NCBI GenBank assembly: GCA_037927135.1
Contig: JAXSPP010000002.1
Coordinates: 32,001-96,000 of the forward strand
Length of the DNA: 64,000 nt
Source: Candidatus Pampinifervens sinense
Lineage (GTDB): Bacteria; Aquificota; Aquificia; Aquificales; Aquificaceae
Direction: 5' to 3'
Position numbers and translations under genes: made by a program
Notes under the pieces: generated by a model
Databases searched by the model: none
What the model saw: only the letters and a program-made list of their open reading frames with translations
What the model was told of the DNA's origin: nothing
Shown: positions 3,610-45,016 of the stretch, piece by piece
How the letters are laid out: each line of letters begins with the position of its first letter
How positions within the stretch are numbered: the stretch's first letter is position 1

Positions 3610-4773
3610 ATGATAGCCGTTGTGAGTATTTATGATGATGTTAACAGCATACTGAACGTGTATAACGATATGGTTTTAGATAGTGAGAGGTTTAAAAAGT
3701 TCAAAAAGGATATTGCTTCTTTTGGTTGTAGGCTTGTAAAATTGGGTGATAAGTATTACAAGATTTTGAAAAAGAAAAAAGCTGTAGGTCATGTGCATAT
3801 AGTATCCTATCCCTTTTGGCACTCTTTAGTAAAAGACTTTAGAGATTGGTTCAAAAATTGCTTCCTTGTTCGTGTGGAAGCCCAGAATTTTCCCATACCT
3901 GCCCCCACAGGAATCACGGATAGGGCTATCCTTACTTATGTAAAAGGTATGTATCTACTATTTCCAAACAGTAATGTAATGTATTTTGCTGGCGAGGGTT
4001 TGGAGTATGTTTATACTGAGGACACCTCAGGCTACGGTTTGCTTTTTATCCAAAGGTATGTTAAAATAGAATATAGGAGGGCTAGCATGAAACAAAAAGA
4101 AAATATACCTATAGAGGTTAAAAACTTAGGCTCAAAAGAGGCAGACAAGCTTGACTTTTCAAGAGAAGAGCTCTATAAACGCATGGACCCCTATCCTTTT
4201 ATGTCAAAAAGAGCTACCGAAGTTCCCGTATACCTGGTAAATCCAAAGCAGATGGATATAGTAAGCCCTCCGGAATATTCAAAGTGCATAGACGAGGAAG
4301 AAATAATCAAGTGGGTAGAAAAATGGATAAAGGAGATAGAAGATTACAAAATCCTTGATGAGGAAGCTATAAAGTCCTTAGCTGATGCCAGAGATATACA
4401 GGAATGTATGCGTGAATCTGAGGAATGTAATAAGGGGTTTGAGGCTGTAGGCTTGTATATAAGTGAAGAATTAGGTAAGCAAAAAGAACAAGAATTGCTT
4501 AATAATGCAGAAATCCCTCTTAATAATGTTTATATAAAATACCCATGCATCTTCATATGTCCAGAGAGGGTTATAGAACGTGCAAAGAAGTATGAAGTTG
4601 ATGTTAATTTATGCTTAGATATGGTTTATTATCATGAATTGGCTCATGCTGTAATGGATAGTAAGCGTAGGGGTATTAATTTAGGAGATGCTTGGGCAAA
4701 AGTTATAGAAGAAAGCTTGGCAAACTGGCTCTCATATAGCTGTTTTACTGGTATCTCTTTCAAAGAATTTTGA
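3610..4773 (+). CDS. Hypothetical protein with C-terminal HEXXH zinc-metallopeptidase-like motif; probable independent start at 4087, probably 3'-truncated
   Basis: YYHELAH...EESLAN; internal promoter and AGGAGG before in-frame ATG 4087. Confidence 0.6.
   Translation: MIAVVSIYDDVNSILNVYNDMVLDSERFKKFKKDIASFGCRLVKLGDKYYKILKKKKAVGHVHIVSYPFWHSLVKDFRDWFKNCFLVRVEAQNFPIPAPTGITDRAILTYVKGMYLLFPNSNVMYFAGEGLEYVYTEDTSGYGLLFIQRYVKIEYRRASMKQKENIPIEVKNLGSKEADKLDFSREELYKRMDPYPFMSKRATEVPVYLVNPKQMDIVSPPEYSKCIDEEEIIKWVEKWIKEIEDYKILDEEAIKSLADARDIQECMRESEECNKGFEAVGLYISEELGKQKEQELLNNAEIPLNNVYIKYPCIFICPERVIERAKKYEVDVNLCLDMVYYHELAHAVMDSKRRGINLGDAWAKVIEESLANWLSYSCFTGISFKEF
4039..4080 (+). promoter_or_regulatory. Sigma70-like promoter plus Shine-Dalgarno for ATG 4087
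   Basis: TTGCTT-17 nt-TAAAAT with TGn extension, then AGGAGG. Confidence 0.55.
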
Positions 4774-5686
4774 GCGAATTCAAATAAATTGGGGAGGAGG
4801 AGAGCTAAGTTTATTGGGGAAGGATATTTTCAGGAAGATAGTCAACACACATGCTTTCAAGGATAAGAAGTTTTACAACAAGTTATATAGCATGTTAGTT
4901 CCACATTTGGATAAGGAATGGCTTGAATTAATTCATAAGTTTGATAGCATGCAGATATCTATAGACAGTTATCGGAAAAGGAATTTTTACACACAAGAGT
5001 ATTTAGAAAAGATAAGGTCATTAAATTTAACAAAGAGCATTTCTTACACGCCTCACAAAGAAGACAGTAAAGAGTTTTTGAGGTATTGCTTTGAGGTTGC
5101 AAAAGGTATAAATGCGAGCGTTTTCCATTTAGGGGTGCTTTATACTAACAAGCCAGAAGAAATTGTGCCTGTAAGTAAGATGATAGAGCTGTTTTATTGG
5201 GCTTTGGAGTTGGCAGAAGAATATGAGATAGAATTAGGTTTTTGGGGAGGTGAAGTAGAAGGTTTTTACTATTTAGATGAGTGTGTAGGCTGGACAGCCT
5301 TTAACTGTTTTAACAATGGTTTTTATATAAGGTCGGATGGAAGCATGTCTTCTTGCACTATAATAGAGGAATATGCGAAAATGTTTATAAAGCCACAATC
5401 CGTAGACATAACCTTTCTTAGCAATGCGGATTATCACAAGGTAAAAGATATAAATACGGGTTTTATAAACACTGTTTTCTTAAAACCTCATCCTGATTGT
5501 TTAGAATGTAATTACTATCCTTTATGTAAGGGAGGATGCCCTTTCTTTAGATTTCTTGGCAGAGGGAAAGACATTTACTGTTCCTATTACAAGGTAATTC
5601 TTGATACACTGTTAAAAAGGGAAAGGAGAAGGCTACTGCCTTCCCCCTCAATTGGTTCAGAAAACAAAGCCCACTTGCAGTCCTAA
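4709..5686 (+). pseudogene. N-terminally truncated radical SAM/SPASM protein
   Basis: Frame open from 4709 with INWGGGEL (GGE motif) and SPASM cysteines (CFNN..DGSMSSC..CLECNYYPLCKGGC..YC), but no CxxxCxxC and no proper start. Confidence 0.7.
5614..5646 (-). terminator. Intrinsic terminator of the outer-membrane barrel gene
   Basis: GGGGAAGGC-AGUA-GCCUUCUCC stem followed by UUUCCCUUUUU on the minus strand. Confidence 0.7.
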
Positions 5687-6460
5687 TCTTTCCTCCTTGC
5701 CATTGGAAGTAGTGTATCTACCTATATGGTCATAAAAGCTCTTATGTTCTCTTCTTTCATAGAAGACGCCTGCGGTGAGTAATTTCCACTTTATGCCTGC
5801 GGATACATTGTATCCTACCTTTTTACCCATATCCTTTTCTATTGAACCTATCCCAGCATAACTTTTATCAAGCTTTACCTTATTTTTCAGTGGAAGCAAA
5901 ACTTTGCCATCCAAATATAACATCTTGTATTCAAGCCTCATGCCTAAGCCAGTGTATAGATATTTGTAGTCGTCAGAGTATGAACCTTCAGTATCCTGCC
6001 ATTGATTTTGATCTTTATCAAACTCCTTAGCAAGATAGTCTACATTCATTTTCCTGAAAGAATAGCCAATAGGGATATATCCTGTTATGGCTACTCCCTT
6101 TAGATTTCCTTCAAAGCGGTCATATTTGTATCCCACTCTGCCTTCTCCTTGAAGTTCCACATGCTTGTATTTAGCTGAGGTATAGTAAAAGACAGAAGAT
6201 TCCACTTTTGCGTCTCCATCGCCCACATAATAAGCGGATAGGTCGCCCTCCAGTCTTACATTACCAAAGGAGTGCCCAAGTCCCATCTTCAATCCATAGA
6301 AGGTCCCATCGTATTTGACTTTACCTTCCTCTCCACTGTCTCTTCTGTAGTTTGCCTTTTGTTGAAAACTGCCCACAACTGGAGTAATGCTAAAATCCAG
6401 TGCGTTGGCTGTGCCAACTGATAAGGCAAACAAAGCTCCTACTGCCAAAGCCTTTTTCAT
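5657..6460 (-). CDS. Outer-membrane beta-barrel protein
   Basis: Signal peptide MKKALAVGALFALSVGTANA, amphipathic aromatic strands, C-terminal GLQVGFVF; AGGAGGTG RBS. Confidence 0.8.
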   Translation of the reverse strand: MKKALAVGALFALSVGTANALDFSITPVVGSFQQKANYRRDSGEEGKVKYDGTFYGLKMGLGHSFGNVRLEGDLSAYYVGDGDAKVESSVFYYTSAKYKHVELQGEGRVGYKYDRFEGNLKGVAITGYIPIGYSFRKMNVDYLAKEFDKDQNQWQDTEGSYSDDYKYLYTGLGMRLEYKMLYLDGKVLLPLKNKVKLDKSYAGIGSIEKDMGKKVGYNVSAGIKWKLLTAGVFYERREHKSFYDHIGRYTTSNGKEERLGLQVGFVF

Positions 6461-6497
6461 CTTGCACCTCCTTTTAAAGAGTTTTGCATACATGTTT

Positions 6498-6526
6498 ACT
6501 ATAGCACAAAAACATATAATTGTCAA
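6498..6526 (-). promoter_or_regulatory. Near-consensus sigma70 promoter for the barrel gene
   Basis: TTGACA-17 nt-TATAGT with TGn extended -10. Confidence 0.75.
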
Positions 6527-6554
6527 GTCTAAATTAAGCATATAATTTATAAGT

Positions 6555-6728
6555 ATGGCAAGGAAGGGATTATGGGTTAAGCGGGATTTGACAAGAATAA
6601 CCACGCATATTCCTACGGAGCTTTACGCCCTTTTAAAGGAAAAGGCAAAGTCTGAGGGCAAGACAATGTCTCTGGTAATAACTGAGATTTTGGAGAAAGA
6701 GCTTAGGCAAGTGCAATATAATAAATAG
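6555..6728 (+). CDS. 57-aa ribbon-helix-helix (Arc/CopG-like) protein, absent from the ORF track
   Basis: MARKGLWVKRDLTRITTHIPTELYALLKEKAKSEGKTMSLVITEILEKEL; stop 2 nt before next ATG. Confidence 0.75.
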   Translation: MARKGLWVKRDLTRITTHIPTELYALLKEKAKSEGKTMSLVITEILEKELRQVQYNK

Positions 6729-6730
6729 TT

Positions 6731-7990
6731 ATGAGGAGAACGTTTCTTTACCTGCGACTAACAAACAGATGCAATTTAAGATGCCCGCATTGTTATATTC
6801 CAGACTATAAAGGTGATATGTCCTTAGATATAGTAAAGAGGGCTTTTGAATATTTCTCAGATAGAGAGTTGACAGTAAGTTTACATGGAGGCGAGCCTAT
6901 CCTTGTGGGTAAGCGTGGTCTTTTCAACGTATTAGAGTTATTTAATAAACAGCGGAAGCATTCTGACACAATCTACATTCAAACCAATTTGCATTATGAT
7001 GTGGAGAGTTTTATAGATTTCTTTAAAACTTTGGACGGTGTAGGAACGTCAATGGATGAGGGCAGAGATAATAAGGTTTTGTATAAGAATATTGATAGAC
7101 TTTTAGAGGAAGGGATAGATATTCATGTTAATATTACGCTTACTGATGCGTATATTGACAGCGGAAAGTTTAGCGAGGATATAAAATTCATTGAGAGTAG
7201 AGGGGTAGGTTTTAGAATAGAACCTTATGTTTATGTTCCTGGTAAGATTTCCCTTTTCAATTACAGAAGGTATATGGAAATAGTGGATGAGTATATGAAG
7301 CATCCCCTTTATACTGCAAAGCATACAGTTTGCGGAGTAAACAAAGTAGTGATTGGCGGTAATTGTGCGAAAGACGGGCTAAGGGTTGTGGATGCAGATG
7401 GTGAGGTGTATATATGTCCTAATTTAGCAGGGTATAAGATGTTTTCCATAGGGAACATAATGGATGATAGTTTTAGCGATGATTTAAGGATAAATAAACT
7501 TGGCATGAAGATTTTTCATGAGAGGGCAAAACAGATAGTATTAAAGACGGATTGTGGTAATTGTCAGAATTTTGCTTGGTGTGAGGGCGGATGTGTAGCG
7601 AACAATATTTTCAAAAATTGGCACAAATTAAAGAGGGAAGAAGATTATATACTTGAAAAGAAGCCCTATTGTTTCATAGGATTGAAAAAAAATTCGCCTA
7701 TAGAATACAGGGGCTACATTCATATTTCAGAAGCCTTTCACAAGCTTTTGGAGTTTTTCTATAATCGTTATAAGAATTGGGTTCTATGGGAGCCCTGGGT
7801 GTATAAGCTTCTTTTTAATTACGACCTATCAACGCATATATTTGAAGCATGGAGCGGGGGAGATACCTATATATTACCTCTTAGTTTAAGGTTGAAAGGG
7901 GAGTCATTTAGATTTGGATACTGGCAACTCTATTCAAAGTTTTTGCTTTTGAGTATGTTAAAGGACAAGATCCGCACCTTTCTTAGTTAA
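6731..7990 (+). CDS. Radical SAM/SPASM protein with an unrelated ~100-aa C-terminal tail
   Basis: CNLRCPHC, HGGEP, SPASM NC..DGEVYIC..CGNCQNFAWCEGGC..YC. Confidence 0.85.
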   Translation: MRRTFLYLRLTNRCNLRCPHCYIPDYKGDMSLDIVKRAFEYFSDRELTVSLHGGEPILVGKRGLFNVLELFNKQRKHSDTIYIQTNLHYDVESFIDFFKTLDGVGTSMDEGRDNKVLYKNIDRLLEEGIDIHVNITLTDAYIDSGKFSEDIKFIESRGVGFRIEPYVYVPGKISLFNYRRYMEIVDEYMKHPLYTAKHTVCGVNKVVIGGNCAKDGLRVVDADGEVYICPNLAGYKMFSIGNIMDDSFSDDLRINKLGMKIFHERAKQIVLKTDCGNCQNFAWCEGGCVANNIFKNWHKLKREEDYILEKKPYCFIGLKKNSPIEYRGYIHISEAFHKLLEFFYNRYKNWVLWEPWVYKLLFNYDLSTHIFEAWSGGDTYILPLSLRLKGESFRFGYWQLYSKFLLLSMLKDKIRTFLS

Positions 7991-8689
7991 TACTTCTGTA
8001 AACTTTTCTATAATCTCATCTTTATCTTCTGAATTAGATAAAACTCTTAGCCAATCGTCAAATTTATGAGGCGATGATATTACCTTATCAATCCCGGTCA
8101 TACTTAAAATTGATTTTGCTGTTTTACGCTTTATAAGCCTCTCTCCATCTATAATATACACCTTCTCCACTTTTTTAAAAACATCTATGTTAGCGTTTTC
8201 ACTCCTCAAAAGCTCCAAAATCTTACCCGCAGCACTATTGCTATCATTATACTTATCAAACAAAAGCACACCAAAAAGCATATCATAGTCATACCTTATT
8301 GAGTTTTCTATTAGATATTCCTCTAAACCTTCTATGTTTATTTCACACATATCCAAGTATGCTTTCAAAACCGGTTGAGGATGTTTATTTTTCATAAAAC
8401 ATCTTGTTCGTTCGCATAGTTGTATAAGTTCGCTTATAAACCGCCCATTGTTGGCTATATTGTCCGTTTTAAACCTCCAAACATAGCCCACAACCCAGCC
8501 CCTTTCCGCCTTAACTGCAAAATGACAAAATACTTCCTCCTCCTTATCATCCACTGGGCGAAAGCATACCATATACTCCCCTTTGCTCTCAACAGCTTCC
8601 AAAGCTCTTAGCCCTGCCGGTAGGCTATGTATTTGAGTGTCAAACCCCCTATTCTTAAAACCTTCCTCTAATCTATCCAATCCTCCCAT
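7958..8689 (-). CDS. Hypothetical protein
   Basis: 243-aa ORF with TATAAT just upstream; no recognised motif. Confidence 0.65.
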   Translation of the reverse strand: MGGLDRLEEGFKNRGFDTQIHSLPAGLRALEAVESKGEYMVCFRPVDDKEEEVFCHFAVKAERGWVVGYVWRFKTDNIANNGRFISELIQLCERTRCFMKNKHPQPVLKAYLDMCEINIEGLEEYLIENSIRYDYDMLFGVLLFDKYNDSNSAAGKILELLRSENANIDVFKKVEKVYIIDGERLIKRKTAKSILSMTGIDKVISSPHKFDDWLRVLSNSEDKDEIIEKFTEVLTKKGADLVL

Positions 8690-8704
8690 GTTATTAATTA
8701 TATG

Positions 8705-10285
8705 CTATTTTGCGTTAAGTTGTAAGTCCTCCACTATATCCACAAAAGCCTTTATCCTATTATACTGGGTAGCAACGCTTTGATAGTCTATAGGATTGGA
8801 CGAGGAAAAGCCAAAAAGGTTTGTATCAAAATCTATGGCTATGAAAATACGCGAATCTATAAAGGAAATTCTTATGCCCTTTGCCTTCATCCGCCTAAGC
8901 CTTTCCCAAAGGCTTACTATTCTCCGCATAAGTTCTGGAGAAAGTATGTGTCTTGATTCAATATGATCCTCTCCAAAGGTATTGAAAAGATTTTCAAAGG
9001 CAGGGTCCTCCAGCTTTATGCGTTTAAAGTTGTTTAAATTTATTTTTTCTCCCTTTGGTAGCAAAATTACTTTTTTAGTAAAGCTTTTGTTAAAATCCGC
9101 CATAAAAAATACACCACGAAAAACATCATACCATACCCTTTCTGTCCGTGTTACAGTTTCGGTCCGTGTATTTCCAAAGGCATCCGTATATGTGCGAGTT
9201 TCCGTATATGTGCGCACCTCTTCGTGTAAAGCATGCACTTGGCTAAATTCTATGGAAATAGCCCCCACTGTTCCGCTTATCAAGGCACTACCACTATACC
9301 TATTTATGCTTGGCTTTGTTATAAAAAGCATGCTTTCATTAACAACTTCAATGGGAATATAGTTATCAGGTTTATATTCTAAATTTGGCTCAATAAATTT
9401 AACTATCTTGTTCATAATGTTTGTAGTTTGTTCCTTAAACTCCTTTTCAAACCCACGGGATAATAACTTTATAATTATAAAGTAGGCTATTATACCCACT
9501 ATGAAAAACAAAATTGCAAATTCTGGTGAATATAAAAGTATGGTAAAACCGATAATGGCCAAATATGACAAAAGACCTATCTTCCACATGAATAGATTAT
9601 GCTTCTCACTTTTTCTTCTTTCTTCTAATGGTTCAACTATAAGCTTTAATTCTTTATTATAAAACTCTTCAAAAATCTTCTCATGTTTTTCATCCTTAAA
9701 AGTAATTTCCACATCCAGCTCTTCCTTTCTTACCTTAAACTCCTCCCTTATTTCATAAAGTTCGTATGGCTTAAAATTAAAAAGTTCAGCCGTTAAACTA
9801 TACCATGCGCTTTGCAACATTCCATTATATTTAGCCACCTTTTCGTTGTAATCTTCTACCAATGATGTGATGGCGCGCCTTGCGGCAAATAATTTATTTT
9901 TTATCTCATTTAACTCAAAGCTAAGCTCGGAAAAGTTTTCATTAGCTCCAAATGGTTGATTTTTATATACACTATCTATAAAATCTTCCAAAAGTTCTTG
10001 CATCTTTTTATACACCTTTAGCCTTTCTTGAATAATCTCTTGAAAAGGTATACCCTCTACAAAGGCTCTGTTTTTTAACTTTGACAATTGGTTTAATATG
10101 CTATCTCCACTAAAAGGTGGGATAATATTATGTAAGTTCATTAGCATACTGTCTGCCTCATATATAACCTTTTCTATGTCTGCCTTTATTGATGATATTT
10201 CTTTAACCCTTTCCTTAAGCCTTCTGTGGAATATCATGAAAAATAAAACAGCTATAAGCACTAAAGCTAATATCCAGTATTCTAT
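8705..10285 (-). CDS. LemA-like domain fused to DUF3137-like membrane protein; possible ATA start at 10285
   Basis: ANENFSEL..AARR..YN (LemA-like); two TM helices; FRGVFF..DFNK, LEDPAFENLF and ILSPELM (DUF3137-like). Confidence 0.7.
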   Translation of the reverse strand: MEYWILALVLIAVLFFMIFHRRLKERVKEISSIKADIEKVIYEADSMLMNLHNIIPPFSGDSILNQLSKLKNRAFVEGIPFQEIIQERLKVYKKMQELLEDFIDSVYKNQPFGANENFSELSFELNEIKNKLFAARRAITSLVEDYNEKVAKYNGMLQSAWYSLTAELFNFKPYELYEIREEFKVRKEELDVEITFKDEKHEKIFEEFYNKELKLIVEPLEERRKSEKHNLFMWKIGLLSYLAIIGFTILLYSPEFAILFFIVGIIAYFIIIKLLSRGFEKEFKEQTTNIMNKIVKFIEPNLEYKPDNYIPIEVVNESMLFITKPSINRYSGSALISGTVGAISIEFSQVHALHEEVRTYTETRTYTDAFGNTRTETVTRTERVWYDVFRGVFFMADFNKSFTKKVILLPKGEKINLNNFKRIKLEDPAFENLFNTFGEDHIESRHILSPELMRRIVSLWERLRRMKAKGIRISFIDSRIFIAIDFDTNLFGFSSSNPIDYQSVATQYNRIKAFVDIVEDLQLNAK

Positions 10286-14648: not shown

Positions 14649-16330
14649 ACTGTTAAAGCTTAGCATAGGAGCCAAACTCTCTCTTTCCTTCATGTTTGTA
14701 ATCCTTCTTACCTCCCTACCCATATCTACCCTTATGCTACTATGGCTTGAAAGGACCTTAAAAGAACACATTGAAGACACCATAAGGAAGGAGATCTTAT
14801 CAAGGGAAAACGATGTAAGGAATGCCCTGCTAAACGGTGACTATTGGACCATCTTTAAACAGGTGGAGTCTCTCTCAAGGCTAAAAGGTATAAAAGATGT
14901 GGCAGTTGTAGACAGCTCGGGCTTTGTCTTGGCCCACTCAAACCCCATGGAATACCCTATAGGTACCTACTTACCGAATTACGAAAGGCTGGAAAAGATA
15001 CCCATAGACAGCTACAACTATACGTTGGCCTACGTGGTCTTCCGTATAGATAAGGAGGCCATAGAAGCCTCCCTTATTCCTCTAAAAATAATCTCCGCAG
15101 GCCTAACTTTCTCCTTGCTCTTTATCGGCATTTTAATGGGCCTTATAGTATCCCTGAGGATTTCAACAAGGTTAAGGAAGGTCCTTAATATGGTAGATAG
15201 CTTTGAGAAGGGCAGGCTTGAAAAGGTTGAGTTTTTAGAGAAGGATGAAATAAGCACCTTTGGTGAATACATGTACAAAAGCCTTTCAAGGATCAACACT
15301 ATGATAAAAAACTCTATCTTTGAAAGGGACTTCTATCAAAGCCTTGTAAACAGCCTTCAGGACATTTTACTGATACTTGACAGGGATGGGAGGATATACT
15401 ATGCCAATAGTATGATTGAAAAGCTAGGCTATACATACGAGAGATTACTCGGTAGGTCTGTGCTTGTGCTTATAAAGGATAGCAAGGATAGAAGAAGGAT
15501 AAAGTCTAAGTTAAGGTCAGGGGAGGCTTTTATAGAAAAGGTAAAGATAAGGGCAAGCTCGGGCGACCTTTACGCCATAATGAGCTTTGTGCCTACCGAA
15601 GAGGCCATCATAGTCTCCATTAAAGGATGTGACAGAGCTCGTAAAGATGGAGGAGAACTTAAAGAGGATGGAGGTATTCTACATGCTTGGAGAGCTTAGC
15701 GCTGGTTTGGCCCATGAGTTGAAAAACGCCCTACTTCCCATAAAGCTACTATCTGATGTTCAAGATTGGGATGAGGAAGACATAAGGGTTGTAAGGTCTG
15801 CCATAAACAGGATAAACAACGTAGTTAGCACCATGCTGGAGTTTGCCAACCTAAACAGCCATCCGGAGGAGAGGGTTTCTTCAGAAGAGATTATAAACTC
15901 GTGGCTGAGCCTTTATGAGCCTTTGATAAGGAGGAAAGGGATAAAGGTAAGCACCCATGTGGATGATTTTAGCTTTAAGATAAACAAGCAAGCTTTCCAG
16001 ATAATCTTTAGCAACCTTTTCAAAAATGCCTTGGAGGCTGTGCCGGAAAATGAAGGGGAGGTGGAGGTACACTTAAAAAAGATAAACGGTAAGGTAGTCT
16101 TAATAGTAAAGGATAATGGCCCTGGTATACCCGCCAAGTACAGAGATAAGATATTTGAACCCTTCTTTACCACCAAGGGAAATAGTGGTACAGGTCTTGG
16201 CCTCTCCCTGGTTTTAAAATATACCTATGAAATCGGTGGATACTTGCATATGGAGACAAAGGAAGGAGGTGGTACAAAATTTGTCCTTGAGGTGCCATTA
16301 AAGGATGGAGAAGAGGATTTTGATAATTGA
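14629..16330 (+). pseudogene. Sensor histidine kinase (TM, HAMP-like, PAS, HisKA, HATPase); frameshift at ~15622-15624
   Basis: AHELKN, DNGPGI, FFTTK and GTGLGL; removing one A restores IKDVTELVKME. Confidence 0.8.
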
Positions 16331-17636
16331 TGACGATCCTGCGGTGCTATATGCTATAAAGAGGGTGCTTACTCAGAGGGGCTTTATCGTTTACACCTTA
16401 GAGTCTCCCGACAGAATGGAGGAGTACATAGATAAATGCCACCTTCTTGTGGTGGACATAAGGCTTATGAACAGGTCTGGGATTGAGGTGGTTATGGATT
16501 TGAGGAGCAGGGGTATAAACATACCCGTCATATTCATAACAGCTTATACAGACTTTGATAACATAGTTCAGGCTTCAAAGCTTGGTGCAGTGGACATACT
16601 TAAAAAGCCCTTTGATATAGAAGACCTTCTGAGGGCTATCAACGTTGCTTTAGATAGGGATAAGGGGAGGATAGTAGACCACTACGAAGAGGAGCATAAG
16701 GTAGTTGGCGCATCTAAGGCCATGTTTGAGGTCTTTAAAAAAGTTGGAATAGCAAGCACTAACGACCTGAACGTGCTTATAACTGGTGAGACGGGCGTGG
16801 GTAAGGATCTGGTGGCAAGGCTTATACACGCCAATTCAAACCGCAAAAATGGCCCCTTTGTGGTGGTTAACTGCCCTTCCGTGCCATGGGACCTTTTTGA
16901 GGTGGAGCTCTTTGGCTATGTTAAAGGTGCCTTTACAGGGGCAACCACTGACAGGAAGGGCAAGGCGGAGCTTGCCAACGGTGGAACCCTTTTCCTGAAC
17001 GAGATTGGAGACCTCCCCTATAAACTTCAAGCAAAGCTCCTAAGCTTTATAGAAAGAAAGGCCTTTTACCCAGTTGGTGGAACGAAAGAGATAACCGTTG
17101 ACGTGAGGTTCATCTTTGCTACCAACAGAAACCTAAAAGAGCTCATAGCAGAAGGTAAGTTTAGAGAGGATCTCTATCATAGGATGAACCAGATGGAGAT
17201 ACACATACCACCATTAAGGGAGAGGAAGGAGGACATAGAGCCCCTCATAAACCACTTTATAGCCATGGTAAACAGAGAACTTGGACTGAAGATAACTGGA
17301 ATATCAAAAAAGGCCCTTGAATTAGCCCTTAAACATCCTTGGTATGGCAATGTGAGAGAGCTAAAGAATGTCATATATAAAGCGGCTATAGATACAAAGG
17401 CAGGTGTAATAGAGAGCCTACCCTTAAAGGAGGAGAGGGCTAAGGGCTTTTCCCTTGAGGAGATGCTTGACCTATATATATCCTCTAAAAAGGAATCAGA
17501 ATTGGCCAACGCCCTTGAAGAGCTTGAAACAACCTTTATAAGGAGGCTACTTGAAAGGTACGGAGGAAACAAAAGCAAGGTGGCACAGCTCCTTGGCATA
17601 TCAAGGAATACCCTCAACGCTAAGCTAAAGGAGTAG
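16305..17636 (+). CDS. Sigma54-dependent response regulator (AioR/NtrC-like) with Walker B D-to-N
   Basis: Receiver, GETGVGKD, GAFTGA, LFLNEIG, HTH. Confidence 0.88.
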   Translation: MEKRILIIDDDPAVLYAIKRVLTQRGFIVYTLESPDRMEEYIDKCHLLVVDIRLMNRSGIEVVMDLRSRGINIPVIFITAYTDFDNIVQASKLGAVDILKKPFDIEDLLRAINVALDRDKGRIVDHYEEEHKVVGASKAMFEVFKKVGIASTNDLNVLITGETGVGKDLVARLIHANSNRKNGPFVVVNCPSVPWDLFEVELFGYVKGAFTGATTDRKGKAELANGGTLFLNEIGDLPYKLQAKLLSFIERKAFYPVGGTKEITVDVRFIFATNRNLKELIAEGKFREDLYHRMNQMEIHIPPLRERKEDIEPLINHFIAMVNRELGLKITGISKKALELALKHPWYGNVRELKNVIYKAAIDTKAGVIESLPLKEERAKGFSLEEMLDLYISSKKESELANALEELETTFIRRLLERYGGNKSKVAQLLGISRNTLNAKLKE

Positions 17637-18969
17637 CCTTACCCTTCAAAAGCTTCCTAAGGGTTATCCTGTTTATGCCTAAAACCTTGGCCGTTTTAGA
17701 CTGGTTTTTACCAAGGATTGAATAGGCCTCCTCCACTATGGCATAGCCTACACTTTCTAAAAGCTTACGGTATATGCCCCTCTCACCAGCCTCTATAAGC
17801 CTTCTTACCTCCATCCTTACAACCCTGTCAATGTCCTGTGGCTCATACTCTTCCACCACAAGCTCCAAATCCTTACCTCTTAAAACATCGCCATCACTTA
17901 AGGCTATGGCCCTTCTTAGCATATTCTCCATCTCCCTCACATTACCGGGCCAGCTGTAGCTAAGCACCTTATCCAAAAAGTCCCTTGTATAACCCCTTAT
18001 CCTCTTTCCCATCTCGACGGATAAGTTCCCTATTATGCAGTTGAGCAAAAGGGGTATGTCTTCCTTTCTTTCTCTTAGAGGGGGTATATGTATATGCACC
18101 ACGCTTATCCTGTAGTAAAGGTCCTCCCTAAAGAGCCCCTCCTTTACCAAACTCTTTATATCTTTATTGGTGGCGCAGATAAGCCTAAAGTCGCAGGGAA
18201 CCTCCTTTGTGCTTCCAAGCCTCCTTAGCTTCTTCTCCTGCAAGACTCTTAAAAGCTTCGGCTGTAAGGCCAAGGGTAGGTCCCCCACCTCATCCAAAAA
18301 TAGCACACCACCCTTCGCCATCTCTATAAGGCCAGCCTTAGAGGTAGAAGCACCTGTAAAGGCTCCCCTTTCGTATCCAAAGAGCTCAGCCTCAAACAAC
18401 TCCGGTGGCACTGCAGAGCAGTTTATGGCCAAAAAGGGTCCATTCCACCTTTTTGAAAGCTTCCAAAGGGCCTTTGCAAAAAGCTCCTTTCCCACACCAG
18501 TCTCACCCGTTATTAAAACTGGCACATCCAAGGGTGCTACCTTCCCAATGGTCTTTAAAACCTCCTTCATCCTTCCCTCAGGGTTCCCTATTATGGAACA
18601 TAGCTCCTTACATAGGTCTCCAGAGAGGTTCTCTTCGCTGTAAACTATAGGTATTACTTCTTCCCTGTGGTAGAGCTCATTTTTAGCCTTTTCAATCACC
18701 TCCCTTAACTCCTTAGGATTTATGGGCTTTAGAAGCACATCATAAAAGCCAAGGCTCATAAGCTTCATGGTGTATCCTGGTAAGGTCCTTCCCGTTATGG
18801 CTATAACCAAGTTCCCATCCTCTTTAAGGTCTGGCAGTGGTGAAAGCCCAACTGTGTCCACATCCAAGATAACTATGGAGTTCCTTAGATCCTCTGGGAG
18901 TTCATCAACAGCTTTTAGGCCTTCCACCCTTAAGCCCCTGTCCTTTGTATACATGATAATAGATTCCAT
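17620..18969 (-). CDS. Sigma54-dependent activator with atypical receiver-like N-terminus
   Basis: GETGVGKE, GAFTGA, LFLDEVG, WPGNVRE, HTH; divergent from the sulfur operon. Confidence 0.9.
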   Translation of the reverse strand: MESIIMYTKDRGLRVEGLKAVDELPEDLRNSIVILDVDTVGLSPLPDLKEDGNLVIAITGRTLPGYTMKLMSLGFYDVLLKPINPKELREVIEKAKNELYHREEVIPIVYSEENLSGDLCKELCSIIGNPEGRMKEVLKTIGKVAPLDVPVLITGETGVGKELFAKALWKLSKRWNGPFLAINCSAVPPELFEAELFGYERGAFTGASTSKAGLIEMAKGGVLFLDEVGDLPLALQPKLLRVLQEKKLRRLGSTKEVPCDFRLICATNKDIKSLVKEGLFREDLYYRISVVHIHIPPLRERKEDIPLLLNCIIGNLSVEMGKRIRGYTRDFLDKVLSYSWPGNVREMENMLRRAIALSDGDVLRGKDLELVVEEYEPQDIDRVVRMEVRRLIEAGERGIYRKLLESVGYAIVEEAYSILGKNQSKTAKVLGINRITLRKLLKGKATPLA

Positions 18970-19057
18970 GTTTATTAATTATACAAGCTGTTTACAAAAT
19001 ATACATGAGCTATATCAGGTAGGCTTGAAAGGTCATTATCTTTTTGAGGCTTCCCCC

Positions 19058-19073
19058 TGGCATGCACTTTGCA
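19058..19073 (+). promoter_or_regulatory. Sigma54 (-24/-12) promoter of the sulfate assimilation operon
   Basis: TGGCATGCACTTTGCA with exact GG-N10-GC spacing, 25 nt before the ATG. Confidence 0.85.
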
Positions 19074-19098
19074 TTGAGTTAGATAGGAGGTGGATAAT

Positions 19099-21738
19099 AT
19101 GAAGCTTTGGGAAGAGGTTATAGAGAAGAATCCAAGGGAAAGGCTTAAGGCAGAAAAGCACCCCCTTGATATAATTTGGGATCTTCCAAGGCTTATAAAG
19201 GAGGGCTATGAAAGGGTCCCAGAAGAGGACCTTGTACGCCTCCAATGGTACGGCCTCTATCACGATAAACCACGCATAGGCTACTTTATGCTGAGGGTTA
19301 AACTGCCTGGTGGAAGGGTAAGGCCGGACCAGCTGAGAATAATTGGGGAGCTTGCCAAAAGCTTTAATGATTATGCAGAGCTCACCACAAGGCAGGATAT
19401 TCAAATGCATGGAATAAGGCTTGATGACCTGCCCTGGGTCTTTGAAAGGCTTTCCAGCGTTGGACTTTTGCCCATAGGGGCCTGTGGTGATACAGTGAGG
19501 AACATAACTAGCTGTCCCGTTTCAGGCGTAGATAAATATGAGCTTTTTGACGTTGAAAGGTGCATAAAAGATCTTGAGAGCTTCTTCCACAATCCAGAAA
19601 ACAAGGAATACTTTAACCTGCCTAGGAAGTTTAAGATAACCCTTTCAAGCTGTCCTTACCATTGCAACTGTCCAGAGATGCATGACCTTGCCTTTGTGGG
19701 CATGGTAAAAGATGGTGTTGAGGGCTTTGCAGTTTGGGTAGGCGGTGGGCTTTCTTCAACGCCAAGGCTTGCAAGAAAGCTAGGCCTATTCATACCAAAG
19801 GAAAAAGTCCTAGAAGTAGCCAAGGCTGTGGTGGACATATGGAGCGAAGATCCAGAAAACAGAAGGTCCTTTGTAAGGGCAAGGATAAAGTACTTCATAG
19901 ACAAGGTTGGGATAGAAGGCTTTAGGGAATTGCTTCTTAAAAGGTTGAGCTTTAGCCCAGATCTTATCAAGGAAGAGCCTGTGGCCATAGGTAGGAACTT
20001 CCATGTGGGAATAGGAGAGCAGAAGGAGGAAGGCCTTTTCTATGTGGGCTTTCCTGTGGAGGCAGGTAGGGTATCCGGCAGCCAGCTTATAAAGGTGGCA
20101 GATCTTGCAGAGGACCTAAACCTCTCCATAAGGGTCTCTCAGAGGCAGAACCTTATACTGACCCATATACCAAGAGAGGATCTTGACCATGTGCTAAGAA
20201 GGATGGAAGAGATAGGCTTTAGCCTCAAAAAGAGCATATCAAGGGGCATATCCATAGCCTGCACAAGCGACCCCTTCTGCAACTACTCCGTTGGCTCCTC
20301 AAAGGAGTTTCTTTTGGAGCTTTTGGAATATCTTGAGGAGAGGCTTGGAGATTTGGGAGATATTGCCATAGGTGTGGATGGCTGTCCCCATGCCTGCGCC
20401 CACCATTGGCTAAACGACATAGGGCTTCAGGCCACTCACATAAGACATCCCGACGGAAGCGTGGAGAGCGCGGTAAACATAGTGCTAGGAGGTGGCTATG
20501 GAAAGTATGCAAACATAGGTAGGATAGTGGCCAAGAAGGTGCCACTGCCTTTGGCAAAAGAGTACATAGAGAGGCTTATACAGGCATACAAAAGCTCAGG
20601 ACATAAAAGCTTTCAGGAGTTTGTAAGGTCTTATTCTGATGAGGAGCTTTTGAGCATTATGCAAGGTGGAAAGGCGGTGGTGCAAGAGGAGAAGGGGAAG
20701 GTAAAGGTAAGGCTCTTTGGGCCCATAAGCAGGTTTTTCGGTGGGCTTTCTGAGGTTGAGGTGGAAGCTAAGACAGTGAGAGAAGCTCTTCTGAAGCTTG
20801 AGGAGGAGTTTAAAGATTTTCGTGGAAGGGCTATTGATGAAAAGGGGGAGCTGAAGCCTTACATAAAGGTCTTTTTGAAAGAGGAGGACATAAAGTTCTT
20901 GCAAGGCCTTGATACCCCTCTTAAGGAAGGAGACGAGATAGCCATATATCCAGCCCTTGCGGGAGGTGCACCCATGTACGATGAGCTTGAGCTTCATGAG
21001 CTCGCTATTGAGTATGAAGGAAGACCGGCACAAGATGTAATAGCCTGGGCCATGGAGAACTTTCATCCAAAGCTCTACATAGCCTGGAGCGGTCAGGCAG
21101 AGGATATGGTGATCCTTGATATGGCTTGCAGGATAAACCCACAGGTCAGGGTCTTTACCGTTGATACGGGAAGGCTTCATGAGGAGACCTACAGGCTTAT
21201 GGAAAAGGTCTATGAGGTCTACGGCATAAGGATAGAGGTTTACTTCCCAGACAAGGAAGAGGTGGAGGATATGGTAAGGAGGTTTGGCGTAAACCTCTTT
21301 TACAGGTCTGTGGAGCTCAGACACCTCTGCTGTCATATAAGGAAGGTGAGGCCCCTTTTGAGGGCTTTAAATCAGGTGGATGCCTGGATCACAGGTTTGA
21401 GAAGGGAACAATGGGCAAGCAGGCACAACCTTATGAAGATTGAAGTGGACCACGACCACGGACAGATAGTAAAAGTGAATCCCTTGGTAGATTGGACGGA
21501 GAGGGATGTGTGGAAGTACATAAAGGAAAAGGGAGTGCCATATAGCGAGCTCTACGAGAAGGGCTATAGAAGCATAGGATGTGCACCTTGCACCAGGCCT
21601 GTGGCCCCTTATGAGGATCCAAGGGCAGGTAGATGGTGGTGGGAAGTGGGAGCTCCTAAGGAGTGTGGTATGCACTGCAGTCTGGAGACGGGAAGCTTTG
21701 AAAGGATATCGGACAAGATACTGGGGGAAAGGAAATGA
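19099..21738 (+). CDS. Fusion of siroheme sulfite reductase, MoaD/CysO-like ubiquitin-fold domain and APS reductase (CysH)
   Basis: TTRQDIQ, ACGDTVRN, LPRKFKI, CTSDPFC..GCPHAC; KVRLFG..PALAGG; DTGRL, LCCHIRK, TGLRREQ, SIGCAPCT, KECGMH. Confidence 0.9.
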   Translation: MKLWEEVIEKNPRERLKAEKHPLDIIWDLPRLIKEGYERVPEEDLVRLQWYGLYHDKPRIGYFMLRVKLPGGRVRPDQLRIIGELAKSFNDYAELTTRQDIQMHGIRLDDLPWVFERLSSVGLLPIGACGDTVRNITSCPVSGVDKYELFDVERCIKDLESFFHNPENKEYFNLPRKFKITLSSCPYHCNCPEMHDLAFVGMVKDGVEGFAVWVGGGLSSTPRLARKLGLFIPKEKVLEVAKAVVDIWSEDPENRRSFVRARIKYFIDKVGIEGFRELLLKRLSFSPDLIKEEPVAIGRNFHVGIGEQKEEGLFYVGFPVEAGRVSGSQLIKVADLAEDLNLSIRVSQRQNLILTHIPREDLDHVLRRMEEIGFSLKKSISRGISIACTSDPFCNYSVGSSKEFLLELLEYLEERLGDLGDIAIGVDGCPHACAHHWLNDIGLQATHIRHPDGSVESAVNIVLGGGYGKYANIGRIVAKKVPLPLAKEYIERLIQAYKSSGHKSFQEFVRSYSDEELLSIMQGGKAVVQEEKGKVKVRLFGPISRFFGGLSEVEVEAKTVREALLKLEEEFKDFRGRAIDEKGELKPYIKVFLKEEDIKFLQGLDTPLKEGDEIAIYPALAGGAPMYDELELHELAIEYEGRPAQDVIAWAMENFHPKLYIAWSGQAEDMVILDMACRINPQVRVFTVDTGRLHEETYRLMEKVYEVYGIRIEVYFPDKEEVEDMVRRFGVNLFYRSVELRHLCCHIRKVRPLLRALNQVDAWITGLRREQWASRHNLMKIEVDHDHGQIVKVNPLVDWTERDVWKYIKEKGVPYSELYEKGYRSIGCAPCTRPVAPYEDPRAGRWWWEVGAPKECGMHCSLETGSFERISDKILGERK

Positions 21739-22022
21739 TAAGCTTGAAGGAGATCAAAGACAGGAAGGCCTTTGAAGAGGGGCTAAGGAAAAGGGGTTGG
21801 AAGGAGGGAAGGTTTAACGGAGGGGTATGTATGATGAAGGAACTGGAAGGCTGGCTATGGATATGCTTGGTCTTTGACCATGAGGCCAAGTTTGCCTCCT
21901 TTGCCCTTGAGGAAAGTTCAAAGATGCATTCGGAAGGTGTAAAGAGGCTTTTGGAGGAAATAAAGAACCTATCAGAGGAGTTTGACTTTGCCATGTTTGG
22001 GAGGTTAGAGTATGGTGGCTGA
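21735..22022 (+). CDS. Small hypothetical protein in the sulfur operon
   Basis: 95 aa, overlapping both neighbours. Confidence 0.65.
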   Translation: MISLKEIKDRKAFEEGLRKRGWKEGRFNGGVCMMKELEGWLWICLVFDHEAKFASFALEESSKMHSEGVKRLLEEIKNLSEEFDFAMFGRLEYGG

Positions 22023-22773
22023 CTTTTTGGGACTTCTTCTCTTTGGCTTCTTTATAGCCTTTGCCATAGGATTAACTGGTGTAGGTGCTGGAACTCTTAC
22101 TGCGCCTCTTCTCATCTTGCTTGGCTTAGATCCTGCAAAAGCAGTTGGTTCTGCCCTTGCCTTCTCTACAGTGGTGAAGTTTCCAGCGGTGTTTACTCAT
22201 GCAGTTTACAAAAATTTGGATTATAAAACCCTTCTTCTTATGCTTGTGGGAGGAGTTCCTGGTACACTCTTGGGTTCTCTTCTTCTCAAACTGTTTCATG
22301 ACCCCTTAGGATTAAAGAAGCTTCTTCTTTTAGTCATAGGTATCACCATAATATTTTCTGTCCTTTTAAATCTACTTATGATTTGGAAAGGTAAGAGGTT
22401 TGACTTAAGCAGGTATAAATACCTTTTACCTGCATGTTGCTTCTTAATAGGCCTTGAAGTTGGTTTTACATCTGCTGGTGCTGGAGCTTTAGGTATGGTA
22501 TTGCTCTTATACTTTACAAAACTGAGTCCTGCAAGAGCGGTTGGTGTGGATATAGCCTTTGGTTTAGCCTGCTCCTTTGTAGGTGGTACCTCACACTTTT
22601 TACAAGGTCATACAGACACGGGAGTATTTCTTCCCATGTCCTTAGGTGGTCTCGCTGGAGTGTTGCTTGGGACTCATTTAGCAAGGACCTTAAATCCCAG
22701 GCCTCTAAGAATAGTTATATCACTGTTGCTTGTTGCAGTTGCCATAAACCTTATACAAAAGGGTTTGAGATGA
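22012..22773 (+). CDS. TauE/SafE family sulfur-compound transporter
   Basis: GLTGVGAG and TSAGAGALG repeats, AVG(S/V), about 8 TM helices. Confidence 0.88.
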   Translation: MVADFLGLLLFGFFIAFAIGLTGVGAGTLTAPLLILLGLDPAKAVGSALAFSTVVKFPAVFTHAVYKNLDYKTLLLMLVGGVPGTLLGSLLLKLFHDPLGLKKLLLLVIGITIIFSVLLNLLMIWKGKRFDLSRYKYLLPACCFLIGLEVGFTSAGAGALGMVLLLYFTKLSPARAVGVDIAFGLACSFVGGTSHFLQGHTDTGVFLPMSLGGLAGVLLGTHLARTLNPRPLRIVISLLLVAVAINLIQKGLR

Positions 22774-23519
22774 TGGGTAAAGTGTACATAGTAGGTGCAG
22801 GACCAGGAGATGTGGAACTTTTAACCCTAAAGGCGTACAAAATCATAAAATCTGCAGATGCCATACTTTATGACAGACTCATAAACCAAGAGATACTGTT
22901 CCTTGCAAAGCCTAACTGCGAACTTCTGTATGTAGGCAAAGAGGACGGAAAGCACACCATAGAGCAAGAAAAGATAAACGAGCTTTTGCTCAGATACGCC
23001 CACACAAAGGATACAGTGGTTAGACTAAAAGGAGGAGACCCCTTTGTCTTTGGAAGAGGAGGGGAAGAAGCCCTCTTTTTAGCACAGCATGGTGTAGAGG
23101 TGGAGGTAGTGCCCGGAGTTAGCTCTGCCATAGCGGTACCATCCTACGCAGGCATACCCTTGACCTTCAGAGGCATATCCTCTTCCTTTGCAGTCATCAC
23201 AGGACACGAAGACCCAAGAAAAGAACACTCAGACATAGATTGGGGAAGTTTGAAAGGCATAAACACCCTTGTCTTTCTGATGGCGGTAAAAAACAGGCAG
23301 GAGATAGCCAAAAGGCTTATAGAGGTAGGGAGGGACCCAAAGGAGCCTGTGGCCTTTATAGAGAATGGGACCACAGAGAAGCAGAAGGTTATACTTACAG
23401 ACCTTTATGAGCTTTCCACAAACCCGCCTGAGGTAAGCCCTCCTGCCATCATGGTGGTGGGACATGTGGTAAGACTGAGGGAAAAATTAGCATTAAAGGA
23501 GGTTGAGGCATGCTTATAG
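22770..23519 (+). CDS. cobA: Uroporphyrinogen-III C-methyltransferase (siroheme synthesis)
   Basis: VGAGPGD, RLKGGDPFVFGRGGEE, VPGVSS. Confidence 0.93.
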   Translation: MMGKVYIVGAGPGDVELLTLKAYKIIKSADAILYDRLINQEILFLAKPNCELLYVGKEDGKHTIEQEKINELLLRYAHTKDTVVRLKGGDPFVFGRGGEEALFLAQHGVEVEVVPGVSSAIAVPSYAGIPLTFRGISSSFAVITGHEDPRKEHSDIDWGSLKGINTLVFLMAVKNRQEIAKRLIEVGRDPKEPVAFIENGTTEKQKVILTDLYELSTNPPEVSPPAIMVVGHVVRLREKLALKEVEACL

Positions 23520-24700
23520 CACCCCATGGAGGAGAGCTTGTAAACAGGGTTGTGCCAGAGAGGGAAAGGGTAAAGATACTGACTGAGGCCGAGAGGTACC
23601 CGTCCCTCCATGTGGATAGGGATACACTCCTTGACGTTGAGAACATTGCCACAGGCGTCTTTTCGCCCCTCAAGGGCTTCATGACAAAAGAAGAGCTTGA
23701 GGGTGTGGTCTATCATATGCTCCTTCCAAGCGGTCATGTCTGGACCATACCCATACTTCTACAGGTGGAAGAAGAGGTGGCAAGGTCCCTTGGACCTGGA
23801 GAGAGAGTGGCCCTAAGGGACGATGAAGGCAGGCTAAAGGCCCTGCTTGATGTTAAGGACATATATCCCATAGAGTTGGAAAAAGTTGCCAGGCTTGTAT
23901 GGGGTACGGACATCAACGAACACCCAGGCGTGAAGACCTTTTACTCAAAGGGAAGATGGGCCATAGGCGGTGATATTTGGCTTTTGGAAAGGGTAAACCA
24001 CCCCCTTAGGGATTGGGTACTGGACCCTGAGGAGACAAGGAAGGTCTTTGAATATAGGGGTTGGAAGAGGGTGGTGGGATTTCAAACTAGGAACGCACCC
24101 CATAGGGCCCATGAGTACCTTCAGAGGATAGCCCTTGAAATAGCAGATGGCCTTTTTATAAACCCTGTCTTGGGCTGGAAGAAGTCTGACGACTTTGACT
24201 CCTACACCGTTTTAAGGGCTTATGAGTACCTTATAGATAACTACTATCCTTCCAAAAGAGTCCTTCTCTCTGGACTTGCCACGGCCATGAGGTATGCGGG
24301 CCCGAGGGAGGCGGTCTTTCATGCTATAGTAAGAAAGAACTTTGGATGCACCCATTTTATAGTGGGCAGGGACCATGCGGGCGTTGGAAACTTTTATGGT
24401 CCTTACGATGCACACAGGATCTTTGATAGGCTTCCAAAGGACATAGGCATAGAGATAATAAGGGTTACTGCTGTCTTTTACTGTAGCCTGTGTGGTTGTA
24501 TGGCATCGGACAAGAGCTGTGGGCATGAGGAAGTCTACAGAACCTATGTTAGCATGACAAAAATAAGGGAGATGTTGAGGAAGGGCCTTGTTCCACCAAA
24601 GGAGATGATAAGGGAGGATATAGCTAAGCTCCTATTCGACCTTGAGTTCACCCATAAGAAAGGCTTTATGGTCTCTGAGAAAGGCCCTGAGGAAAGATAG
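23510..24700 (+). CDS. sat: Sulfate adenylyltransferase
   Basis: PHGG, FQTRNAPHRAHE, MRYAGPREA, VGRDHAG. Confidence 0.96.
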   Translation: MLIAPHGGELVNRVVPERERVKILTEAERYPSLHVDRDTLLDVENIATGVFSPLKGFMTKEELEGVVYHMLLPSGHVWTIPILLQVEEEVARSLGPGERVALRDDEGRLKALLDVKDIYPIELEKVARLVWGTDINEHPGVKTFYSKGRWAIGGDIWLLERVNHPLRDWVLDPEETRKVFEYRGWKRVVGFQTRNAPHRAHEYLQRIALEIADGLFINPVLGWKKSDDFDSYTVLRAYEYLIDNYYPSKRVLLSGLATAMRYAGPREAVFHAIVRKNFGCTHFIVGRDHAGVGNFYGPYDAHRIFDRLPKDIGIEIIRVTAVFYCSLCGCMASDKSCGHEEVYRTYVSMTKIREMLRKGLVPPKEMIREDIAKLLFDLEFTHKKGFMVSEKGPEER

Positions 24701-44300: not shown

Positions 44301-44391
44301 AGCCAACCTCCTGTGATTATTAAATTATGCCCTCACCTCTCTCCTCTTACTTTCAACTTTTTTATGTCATTATAAACAAAACTTATAGATT

Positions 44392-44994: not shown

Positions 44995-45016
44995 AGGGAT
45001 TAAAATATAACTTTCA

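Follow-up and report, generated by a model that had tools for sequence, protein, structure and literature searches.

The stretch of 64,000 nucleotides analysed here (the window) belongs to Candidatus Pampinifervens sinense (GenBank assembly GCA_037927135.1, contig JAXSPP010000002.1, positions 32,001-96,000 of the forward strand) and carries, at 19099-21738, a gene, sir-thiS-cysH, in which a sulfite reductase (SiR), a ubiquitin-like sulfur carrier of the ThiS family and an adenosine 5'-phosphosulfate (APS) reductase are encoded one behind the other. The gene arose by a true fusion of two neighbours that both serve sulfate assimilation, and selection maintains it; the Gly-Gly end of the carrier lies buried inside the chain. 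By analogy with the MoaD-MoaE fusions that are cut by JAMM proteases, the balance tips modestly toward the 879-aa product being a precursor that is cut after Gly623. The positions of all features are collected in Table 1.

The open frame extends without interruption from 19090 to 21738 on the forward strand, and its ATG at 19099 follows a Shine-Dalgarno sequence (SD; GGAGGTG, 19086-19092) with a 6-nt spacer. The list of open reading frames (ORFs), Pfam and NCBIfam agree on a single ORF with all three domains, as an earlier interpretation made from the letters alone (the sequence-only reading) had described it; the coordinates and motifs quoted there (CTSDPFC, GCPHAC, IYPALAGG, CC...CAPC and ECGMH) are all present in the translation, as is the Ala behind the Gly-Gly. 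The reductase domain gave two stretches each of Pfam NIR_SIR_ferr (E 1.8e-34) and NIR_SIR (E 1.1e-53), corresponding to a duplicated core, and its nearest solved structure is the Mycobacterium tuberculosis NirA (1zj8, E 2.1e-62). The siroheme-[4Fe-4S] ligands C388, C394, C429 and C433 are at least 90% conserved in the alignments. All NCBIfam equivalogs on this domain scored under their cut-offs (for example, ferredoxin-nitrite reductase with 332 bits vs 594), and sulfite rather than nitrite is the probable substrate because of the fusion to CysH and the operon with sat and cobA. The carrier domain matched Pfam ThiS from end to end (residues 537-623, profile positions 1-76 of 76, E 6.1e-10) and came just below the NCBIfam cut-offs for SAMP1 (57.6 bits vs 60) and moaD_arch (47.1 vs 49.5). 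The solved carriers 4n6e_B, 2m19_A, 3dwg_C (CysO) and 2l52_A all align their own C-terminal Gly-Gly with Gly622-Gly623; 3dwg is the structure of CysO with CysM.

The third domain was identified by Pfam PAPS_reduct (residues 659-834, E 1.4e-50), by NCBIfam TIGR02055 for the thioredoxin-dependent APS reductase (266.2 bits vs a cut-off of 235.3), by NF002537 (residues 629-861) and by the APS reductase of Pseudomonas aeruginosa (2goy, E 2.1e-61), the alignment with which begins at residue 624. The CysH homology thus starts directly after Gly623, and the carrier adjoins the next enzyme with almost no linker. In assimilatory [4Fe-4S] APS reductases, CC...CxxC binds the cluster, while ECG[IM]H near the C-terminus is the catalytic motif. 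An APS-dependent CysH fits well, since the operon is without an APS kinase. The fusion protein holds the only PAPS_reduct match above the cut-off in the whole genome. Gly622-Gly623 is encoded at 20962-20967 and is followed by another 256 residues in the same frame, so that it is not the free C-terminus of the gene product; a free Gly-Gly end would need proteolysis.

The AlphaFold2 (AF2) model, built from a 121-row alignment (mean predicted local distance difference test, pLDDT, 87.3; predicted template modelling score, pTM, 0.65), gave three confident domains without a folding conflict. Nearly all 10-residue blocks of the reductase domain had a pLDDT of at least 85, with one at 80, and residues 534-618 showed the strand/helix pattern of a beta-grasp fold. 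The pLDDT fell below 50 at residues 525-532 and 620-625 (LAGGAP), and because of the latter the Gly-Gly junction is predicted to be a flexible tail. A structure prediction had been among the checks suggested by the sequence-only reading, together with a search for the same domain architecture elsewhere. The latter search covered 5.8 billion proteins, and 120 clusters were listed (the counts of listed matches given below refer to these). The three-domain layout was found in 12 of them (P0001-P0012), at 49-96% identity and with lengths of 878-925 aa. On the genome level, 12 of 151 genomes of the phylum Aquificota carry the three-domain gene in 13 full copies, which are spread over three genera of a single family, the Aquificaceae; the named records of these carriers are metagenome-assembled genomes (MAGs) from hot springs. 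Genome G012 of the same genus has two copies (C1:1363789-1366425 and C1:164519-167134), 95% and 69% identical to the window gene, which match two sub-types, with and without an internal Met (see below).

Contigs of the public runs X5 and X10 span 18905-22100 unbroken, and their only indels (19056, 22036 and 22042) fall outside the ORF; a stop codon at the junction, against which the sequence-only reading had warned, is absent from these independent contigs. The metatranscriptome run X24 had 0 reads on 18900-22100 and says nothing on expression or transcript ends. Fused and split junctions differ by 2-4 nt only, as would be expected if the fusion were artefactual, or if a frameshift had recently joined two genes into an allele without function. 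Against this stand the recurrence of the same fused frame in 12 genomes of three genera and in 12 clusters of proteins, the most distant at 49% identity, the independent contigs free of indels in the ORF, the purifying selection on all three domains and the location of the genome's only APS reductase inside the fusion. Such an explanation is exceedingly improbable and, as far as sequence data reach, refuted.

The origin of the fusion can be followed in its relatives. Reductase-carrier fusions occur in Chloroflexota, Actinomycetota, Acidobacteriota, Armatimonadota, Gemmatimonadota and further groups. The Pfam pair of SiR and a C-terminal ThiS was present in 47 of the 120 listed matches, and P0059 adds one more with the same end motif; outside the Aquificaceae group, 31 of the 37 listed two-domain proteins end exactly with [AS]GG and six have short tails. 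In nearly all of 80 loci that were fetched from named genomes, the sulfite reductase gene (in most with the ThiS domain) is directly followed by cysH, an order that spans the phyla named above as well as Rhodothermus, Tectomicrobia and others. The frames of SiR-ThiS and cysH are often parted by one in-frame stop immediately behind the Gly-Gly. These loci comprised 62 distinct SiR-ThiS sequences: in other phyla, 35 stop at the Gly-Gly, 10 have one or two residues more and one is fused, while the Aquificaceae group includes 10 fused sequences, five with Gly-Gly plus 2-5 residues and one that is ended by a contig edge.

In sister genera of the Aquificaceae, sir-thiS and cysH are split genes, and in four split loci the carrier ends with ALAGG plus 2-5 residues; among the listed matches, eleven split proteins have tails of 2-6 residues behind the Gly-Gly. 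The sir-thiS stop of the split loci lies at or just past the ATG of cysH, with an ATGA overlap in two of four, and the Gly-Gly codons, GGAGGT, double as the ribosome-binding site of cysH. Between these codons and a conserved GAT, fused genes have a spacer of 12 nt and split genes one of 14-16 nt. The junction shows how such fusions arise: by a change of 2-4 nt at a stop/start junction at which the Gly-Gly codons serve as the ribosome-binding site. A quick tree of the reductase domain placed the fused Aquificaceae on one side of a branch with a support of 97 in the Shimodaira-Hasegawa-like approximate likelihood ratio test (SH-aLRT) and the split ones on the other (SH-aLRT 90), which is compatible with a single origin of the fusion within this family. 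A fused pair from Chloroflexota and the SiR-CysH fusions without a carrier were placed elsewhere in this quick tree, and a fusion of the reductase with CysH has therefore arisen at least three times. The independent three-domain fusion of the Chloroflexota (P0011, P0012 and L053, an Anaerolineae MAG, 5938-8718) reads the former intergenic stretch as a linker of about 25-28 residues, where its relatives have one in-frame stop after the Gly-Gly. The carrier-less fusions (P0031, P0034, P0038 and P0040, four of the 120 listed matches, one of them named Thermoleophilia) form a clade of their own. A census of the ThiS-CysH junction was made over 1.84 billion cluster representatives of a 50%-identity library. 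Among its best 150 matches, which were examined, only P0001, the window protein's own cluster, matched both parts, and no other lineage did; a Pfam check of 10 longer census matches detected ThiS in none. The Chloroflexota fusions are missing from this census presumably because unfused proteins represent their clusters. CysH is also joined elsewhere to other partners, namely DUF934 and a CysN-like GTPase.

The Gly-Gly is invariant in the 40-sequence alignment A1, and all 18 fused loci keep either LAGG or ISGG with four different codon pairs (GGA-GGT, GGA-GGC, GGT-GGT and GGT-GGC). In contrast, the three residues past it vary: A or S at the first position, P, H or K at the second and M, L, T, S, P, Y, A or D at the third. 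The retention of Gly-Gly in 12 of 12 three-domain clusters and in all fused loci despite synonymous changes, which the sequence-only reading had named as a check, points to selection at the protein level. For three pairs within the window's clade, the ratio of nonsynonymous to synonymous divergence (dN/dS) was 0.049-0.069 for ThiS, 0.090-0.106 for SiR and 0.036-0.093 for CysH, values that are rough because dS (1.0-1.6) is near saturation. The dN of ThiS was below that of SiR in eight of 12 fused-fused pairs and at most 1.15 times that of SiR in the others. By these comparisons, purifying selection acts on the carrier domain no less strongly than on the enzymes. A quicker evolution of the carrier domain after the fusion was considered and rejected, as there was no asymmetry in dN or in the identity to outgroup carriers, which is alike for fused (36.0%) and split (36.6%) domains. 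Since no stop remains between the two genes, every SiR-ThiS molecule is made in fused form.

The same does not hold for CysH in all lineages. Positions 20962-20976 read GGAGGTG-N5-ATG, a near-copy of the arrangement at the real start of the operon. The window contains this pattern four times, where 0.12 would be expected; two of the remaining occurrences stand at the first start codon of a long ORF, and the last precedes an ATG that lies in frame, 34 codons into a long ORF. This usage of the pattern makes separate translation of CysH from Met626 likely in the window's sub-clade, where the Met is kept in four of five distinct members (alignment A1). CysH is thus probably also initiated internally in the window's own clade. 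Such a start would leave the C-terminus of the carrier unfreed, and the CysH supply of the window organism would be independent of cleavage. The old Met is lost in seven of 11 distinct fused Aquificaceae proteins (P0004-P0010), some of which are also without the SD; because of this loss, CysH would be made only as a part of the chain in these lineages.

The genome contains the partners that a functional carrier of this type would require. As the sequence-only reading had stated, no E1, JAMM or cysteine synthase gene lies in the window; the search that it proposed located a JAMM protease, a MoeB-type E1 and CysM on other contigs. The JAMM motif, E..HSH..S..D, is intact, and an alignment of 21 sequences shows no exchange at Glu23, His83, His85, Ser93 or Asp96. 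The one MoeB/UbaA-like E1 in the genome has 271 aa and no rhodanese domain; it is the candidate for adenylation and thiocarboxylation of the carrier's C-terminus. CysM scored above the TIGR01138 cut-off. Apart from the stand-alone CysO/SAMP1 paralog (Table 1), three further ThiS-family proteins are encoded: a MoaD-like one, a ThiS-like one and a 67-aa one beside metF. The 67-aa ThiS-like protein ends with AISGG and is encoded between metF and a TusA-like gene, and the genome has a second threonine-synthase-like protein, which bears a zinc ribbon at its N-terminus (C1:76986-78566, C1:298820-300049). In 18 relatives, the CysO paralog hardly varies up to the Gly-Gly and has an invariant SIVPAIAGG followed by 0-3 residues, in 12 of them by a tail of 1-3 aa, which suggests that trimming after the Gly-Gly is routine in the Aquificaceae. 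MetY, also sought on the advice of the sequence-only reading, did not appear: the genome gave no Cys_Met_Meta_PP match above the cut-off, the profile used for MetY/MetB/MetC-type enzymes. Homocysteine may also be formed via a protein thiocarboxylate. Separately, a second NirA-like domain with 33% identity is encoded at C3:161524-162897 on the reverse strand, inside a 955-aa frame; many relatives have long frames of this kind as well.

The following course of events is proposed. Sulfate would be activated by Sat, APS reduced by CysH and sulfite reduced by the NirA-type domain. The single JAMM/MPN+ metalloprotease would cut the 879-aa precursor behind Gly623, yielding a 623-aa reductase with its own tethered carrier and a free LAGG-COOH end, plus a 256-aa APS reductase. 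The freed Gly-Gly would be adenylated by the only MoeB-type E1 of the genome, and sulfide from the tethered reductase, a few nanometres away, would turn the adenylate into a thiocarboxylate. CysM would then take the carrier sulfur for cysteine synthesis, and JAMM would recycle the carrier. In the window's sub-clade, CysH would additionally be translated alone from Met626.

The sequence-only reading had left two alternatives side by side, a cut precursor and an intact channelling enzyme, and the evidence leans toward the former. As an intact two-enzyme fusion, the protein would pass sulfite from the APS reductase to the sulfite reductase; the carrier would be a spacer or docking module with the Gly-Gly as a hinge, and sulfur would travel via the CysO paralog or as free sulfide. 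The AF2 model, in which the three domains fold without conflict, the many partners to which CysH is joined elsewhere and the presence of a stand-alone CysO/SAMP1 paralog are all consistent with this, and so is the separate clade of SiR-CysH fusions without ThiS. Against it speak the purifying selection on the carrier, which is as strong as on the enzymes, the Gly-Gly itself, which never changes although its codons do and the linker residues next to it differ, and the ancestral and sister proteins, which expose the Gly-Gly or bear short, removable tails; nor would a spacer need a full CysO-like surface. An intact enzyme is considered rather unlikely. A cut after the Gly-Gly by another peptidase or by self-processing, instead of JAMM, is more improbable still: the JAMM gene lies away from the operon, the prediction of the complex between JAMM and residues 533-879 gave weak support and the protease of MoaX is given as 'as yet unidentified' in PMC4326299, but JAMM proteins are the enzymes that, according to PMC8832034, were shown to cut fusions and tails of the ThiS/MoaD type, exactly one of them with an intact motif is present in the genome, and the Pfam/NCBIfam scan of the fusion protein found no self-cleaving module.

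The predicted complex of the JAMM protein with residues 533-879 reached an interaction score (ipSAE) of 0.54 (0.53, 0.56 and 0.54) against 0.00 for the best of three controls, with at least 91% of contacts agreeing between runs and a partner pLDDT of at least 84. Of 80 solved complexes, 58 pass the mark applied, as do 2 of 110 mismatched pairs, and passes at an ipSAE of at most 0.60 comprise seven of these 80 complexes and both passing mismatches, so that the prediction lends the interaction weak support. Such a pass may also reflect memory or likeness, since complexes of JAMM with ubiquitin-like proteins are already solved. Several observations weigh against cleavage by JAMM after Gly623. The JAMM gene stands apart from the operon, between asd and a deaminase gene. 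A strong match was obtained for 71 of 72 further genomes of the family and for 42 of 44 of the neighbouring family, with or without the fusion; as a core family gene, its presence does not discriminate between the readings. It was detected in 11 of the 12 fusion genomes, the one without a match being G113 (83% complete). The existence of carrier-less SiR-CysH fusions means that a covalent pair of reductases is viable by itself, and selection may favour the joined reductases themselves. The Gly-Gly could persist merely as a flexible hinge, and all of the sulfur could travel on the stand-alone CysO paralog, leaving the internal C-terminus dispensable. The near-saturated dS mentioned above also limits the argument from selection.

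Among the known systems, the two-domain SiR-ThiS proteins are the closest. They were noted by comparative genomics in Nocardioides and Acidothermus (Iyer, Burroughs and Aravind, 2006; PMC1779556), a study that gives JAB, E1, SirA, 3'-phosphoadenosine 5'-phosphosulfate (PAPS) reductase and ATP sulfurylase as their operon context. They share with the window protein the NirA-type reductase, the C-terminal CysO-like carrier and the partnership with APS/PAPS reductase and ATP sulfurylase. In most of them the Gly-Gly end is free, whereas here the APS reductase is fused on and the Gly-Gly is internal. No biochemical characterisation of the two-domain form was found in the full-text literature searched. 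Neither was the three-domain form, a carrier between two enzymes of the same pathway of which the downstream one is not its client, found in the full texts (supplements excluded). The statement of the sequence-only reading that no characterised example was known to it therefore stands for the three-domain form, whereas the two-domain form had been noted in 2006.

JAMM exposure of a buried carrier Gly-Gly is established for MoaD-MoaE fusions. In MoaX, the fusion of this type in M. tuberculosis, the chain is cut between Gly82 and Ser83, and activity depends on this cut (PMC4326299). The Deinococcus radiodurans fusion DR2607 is cut by DR0402/DRJAMM, which leaves a C-terminal Gly, and HvJAMM1 cleaves linear SAMP1 fusions (both from PMC8832034). 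The likeness lies in a carrier of the ThiS/MoaD family with its Gly-Gly buried before another enzyme, and in the small residue behind it, which is Ser in MoaX and Ala or Ser in SiR-ThiS-CysH. In contrast to MoaE, which is downstream and uses its carrier, the downstream CysH acts two steps earlier and makes no use of the carrier. Also unlike MoaD-MoaE, the carrier here is flanked on both sides and would stay on the upstream enzyme after the putative cleavage.

The cysteine pathway of M. tuberculosis consists of CysO, CysM, Mec+ and MoeZ. The window organism has a CysO/SAMP1-like carrier, CysM, a Mec+-like JAMM and a MoeB/MoeZ-like E1 as well; in contrast to M. tuberculosis, the genes are scattered, the E1 is without rhodanese and a covalent link holds the carrier to the enzyme that makes the sulfide. 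In Wolinella succinogenes, a methionine pathway of HcyS, HcyD, HcyF and MetY with a sulfite reductase in the cluster was reportedly described by Krishnamoorthy and Begley in 2011. HcyS is said to carry one extra Ala after the Gly-Gly, which is removed by a JAMM protease, and the sulfide of the sulfite reductase was reportedly proposed as the source. The Wolinella MetY takes the sulfur from a protein thiocarboxylate (PMC8191291). The Wolinella proteins are separate and the acceptor enzyme is an O-acetylhomoserine sulfhydrylase, whereas the present genome has no Cys_Met_Meta_PP match above the cut-off, as mentioned. In eukaryotic ubiquitin-ribosomal protein precursors, a ubiquitin-like domain of the beta-grasp fold is in frame with an unrelated functional protein, which a cut after the Gly-Gly sets free. 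These differ in kingdom and protease classes, and their ubiquitin-like domain is N-terminal, in contrast to the central one here that would stay on the upstream enzyme. In the literature found, the hand-over of nascent sulfide to a protein thiocarboxylate was tested only with separate proteins.

The fusion gene is the first of an operon in which it is followed by the 95-aa ORF, the TauE/SafE-family gene, the methyltransferase gene and the ATP sulfurylase gene (Table 1). The 95-aa ORF keeps its place behind cysH in every Aquificaceae locus, and in a few Chloroflexota-like ones (L078, L083 and others) too. That it might be a second carrier by its C-terminal Gly-Gly was considered and rejected, since this Gly-Gly is not conserved and the ORF has no family match. 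Directly upstream lie two genes for sigma-54-dependent activators and a sigma-54-type promoter motif; TGGCAYNNNNNTTGCW has a single match in the 64-kb window against 0.13 expected by chance. Sigma-54 control of sulfate assimilation would be unusual. The G+C content of the window is lower (0.35-0.41) at 4001-10000 and 44001-58000 than in most of the rest (0.43-0.49).

Table 1. Features of the sir-thiS-cysH locus and of two partner genes (window positions, unless a contig is named)
Feature	Position	Strand	Evidence or remark
Second sigma-54-dependent activator	16305..17636	+	Upstream of operon
Sigma-54-dependent activator, divergent from operon	17620..18969	-	Pfam Sigma54_activat, E 3.3e-68
Sigma-54-type promoter motif TGGCAT-N5-TTGCA	19058..19073	+	26 nt upstream of start codon
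Fused gene sir-thiS-cysH	19099..21738	+	879 codons + stop; ORF list, Pfam, NCBIfam, SD
NirA-type siroheme/[4Fe-4S] sulfite reductase domain, aa 1-524	19099..20670	+	Pfam NIR_SIR, NIR_SIR_ferr; 1zj8
Flexible linker 1, aa 525-532	20671..20694	+	AF2 pLDDT <50
CysO/SAMP1-like ThiS beta-grasp sulfur carrier, aa 535-623, end YPALAGG	20701..20967	+	Pfam ThiS, solved relatives
GGAGGTG-N5-ATG: Gly622-Gly623 codons (GGAGGT) and in-frame Met626, former cysH start	20962..20976	+	Sequence pattern
[4Fe-4S] APS reductase CysH, aa 624-879	20968..21735	+	TIGR02055, 2goy
Conserved 95-aa ORF, no family	21735..22022	+	Overlaps fusion stop; no Pfam/NCBIfam match
TauE/SafE-family membrane protein	22012..22773	+	PF01925, E 1.1e-40
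Uroporphyrinogen-III methyltransferase-type TP_methylase (siroheme synthesis)	22770..23519	+	PF00590, E 3e-54
ATP sulfurylase (Sat)	23510..24700	+	Pfam ATP-sulfurylase + PUA_2
JAMM/MPN+ protease	C5:141923-142348		Prok-JAB, E 5e-27; sole one in genome
Stand-alone CysO/SAMP1 paralog	C3:10700-10978 (L003 1492-1770)		Ends AIAGG-HI, ~50% identical to internal domain

If the cleavage is confirmed, the fusion would stand as a naturally occurring polyprotein whose ubiquitin-like domain is both a sulfur carrier and the release signal of the downstream enzyme, and the precedent of MoaD-MoaE would be extended to amino-acid sulfur metabolism. The thermostable single chain is an easy target for expression, cleavage assays and mass spectrometry. 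The reductase-carrier fusion itself is a 'Rosetta stone', which argues that many bacteria pass nascent sulfide directly to a protein thiocarboxylate. A wider proposal is put forward tentatively, its chances being a little short of even: the fusion may correspond, in bacteria, to the ubiquitin-fusion precursors of eukaryotes. Where the internal start has been lost, the sole APS reductase would then be made only via JAMM-dependent cleavage, and the same cut would arm the sulfite reductase with a tethered carrier, leading from sulfate through a protein thiocarboxylate to cysteine without free sulfide. If this is true, one protease would gate the whole sulfate-assimilation pathway.

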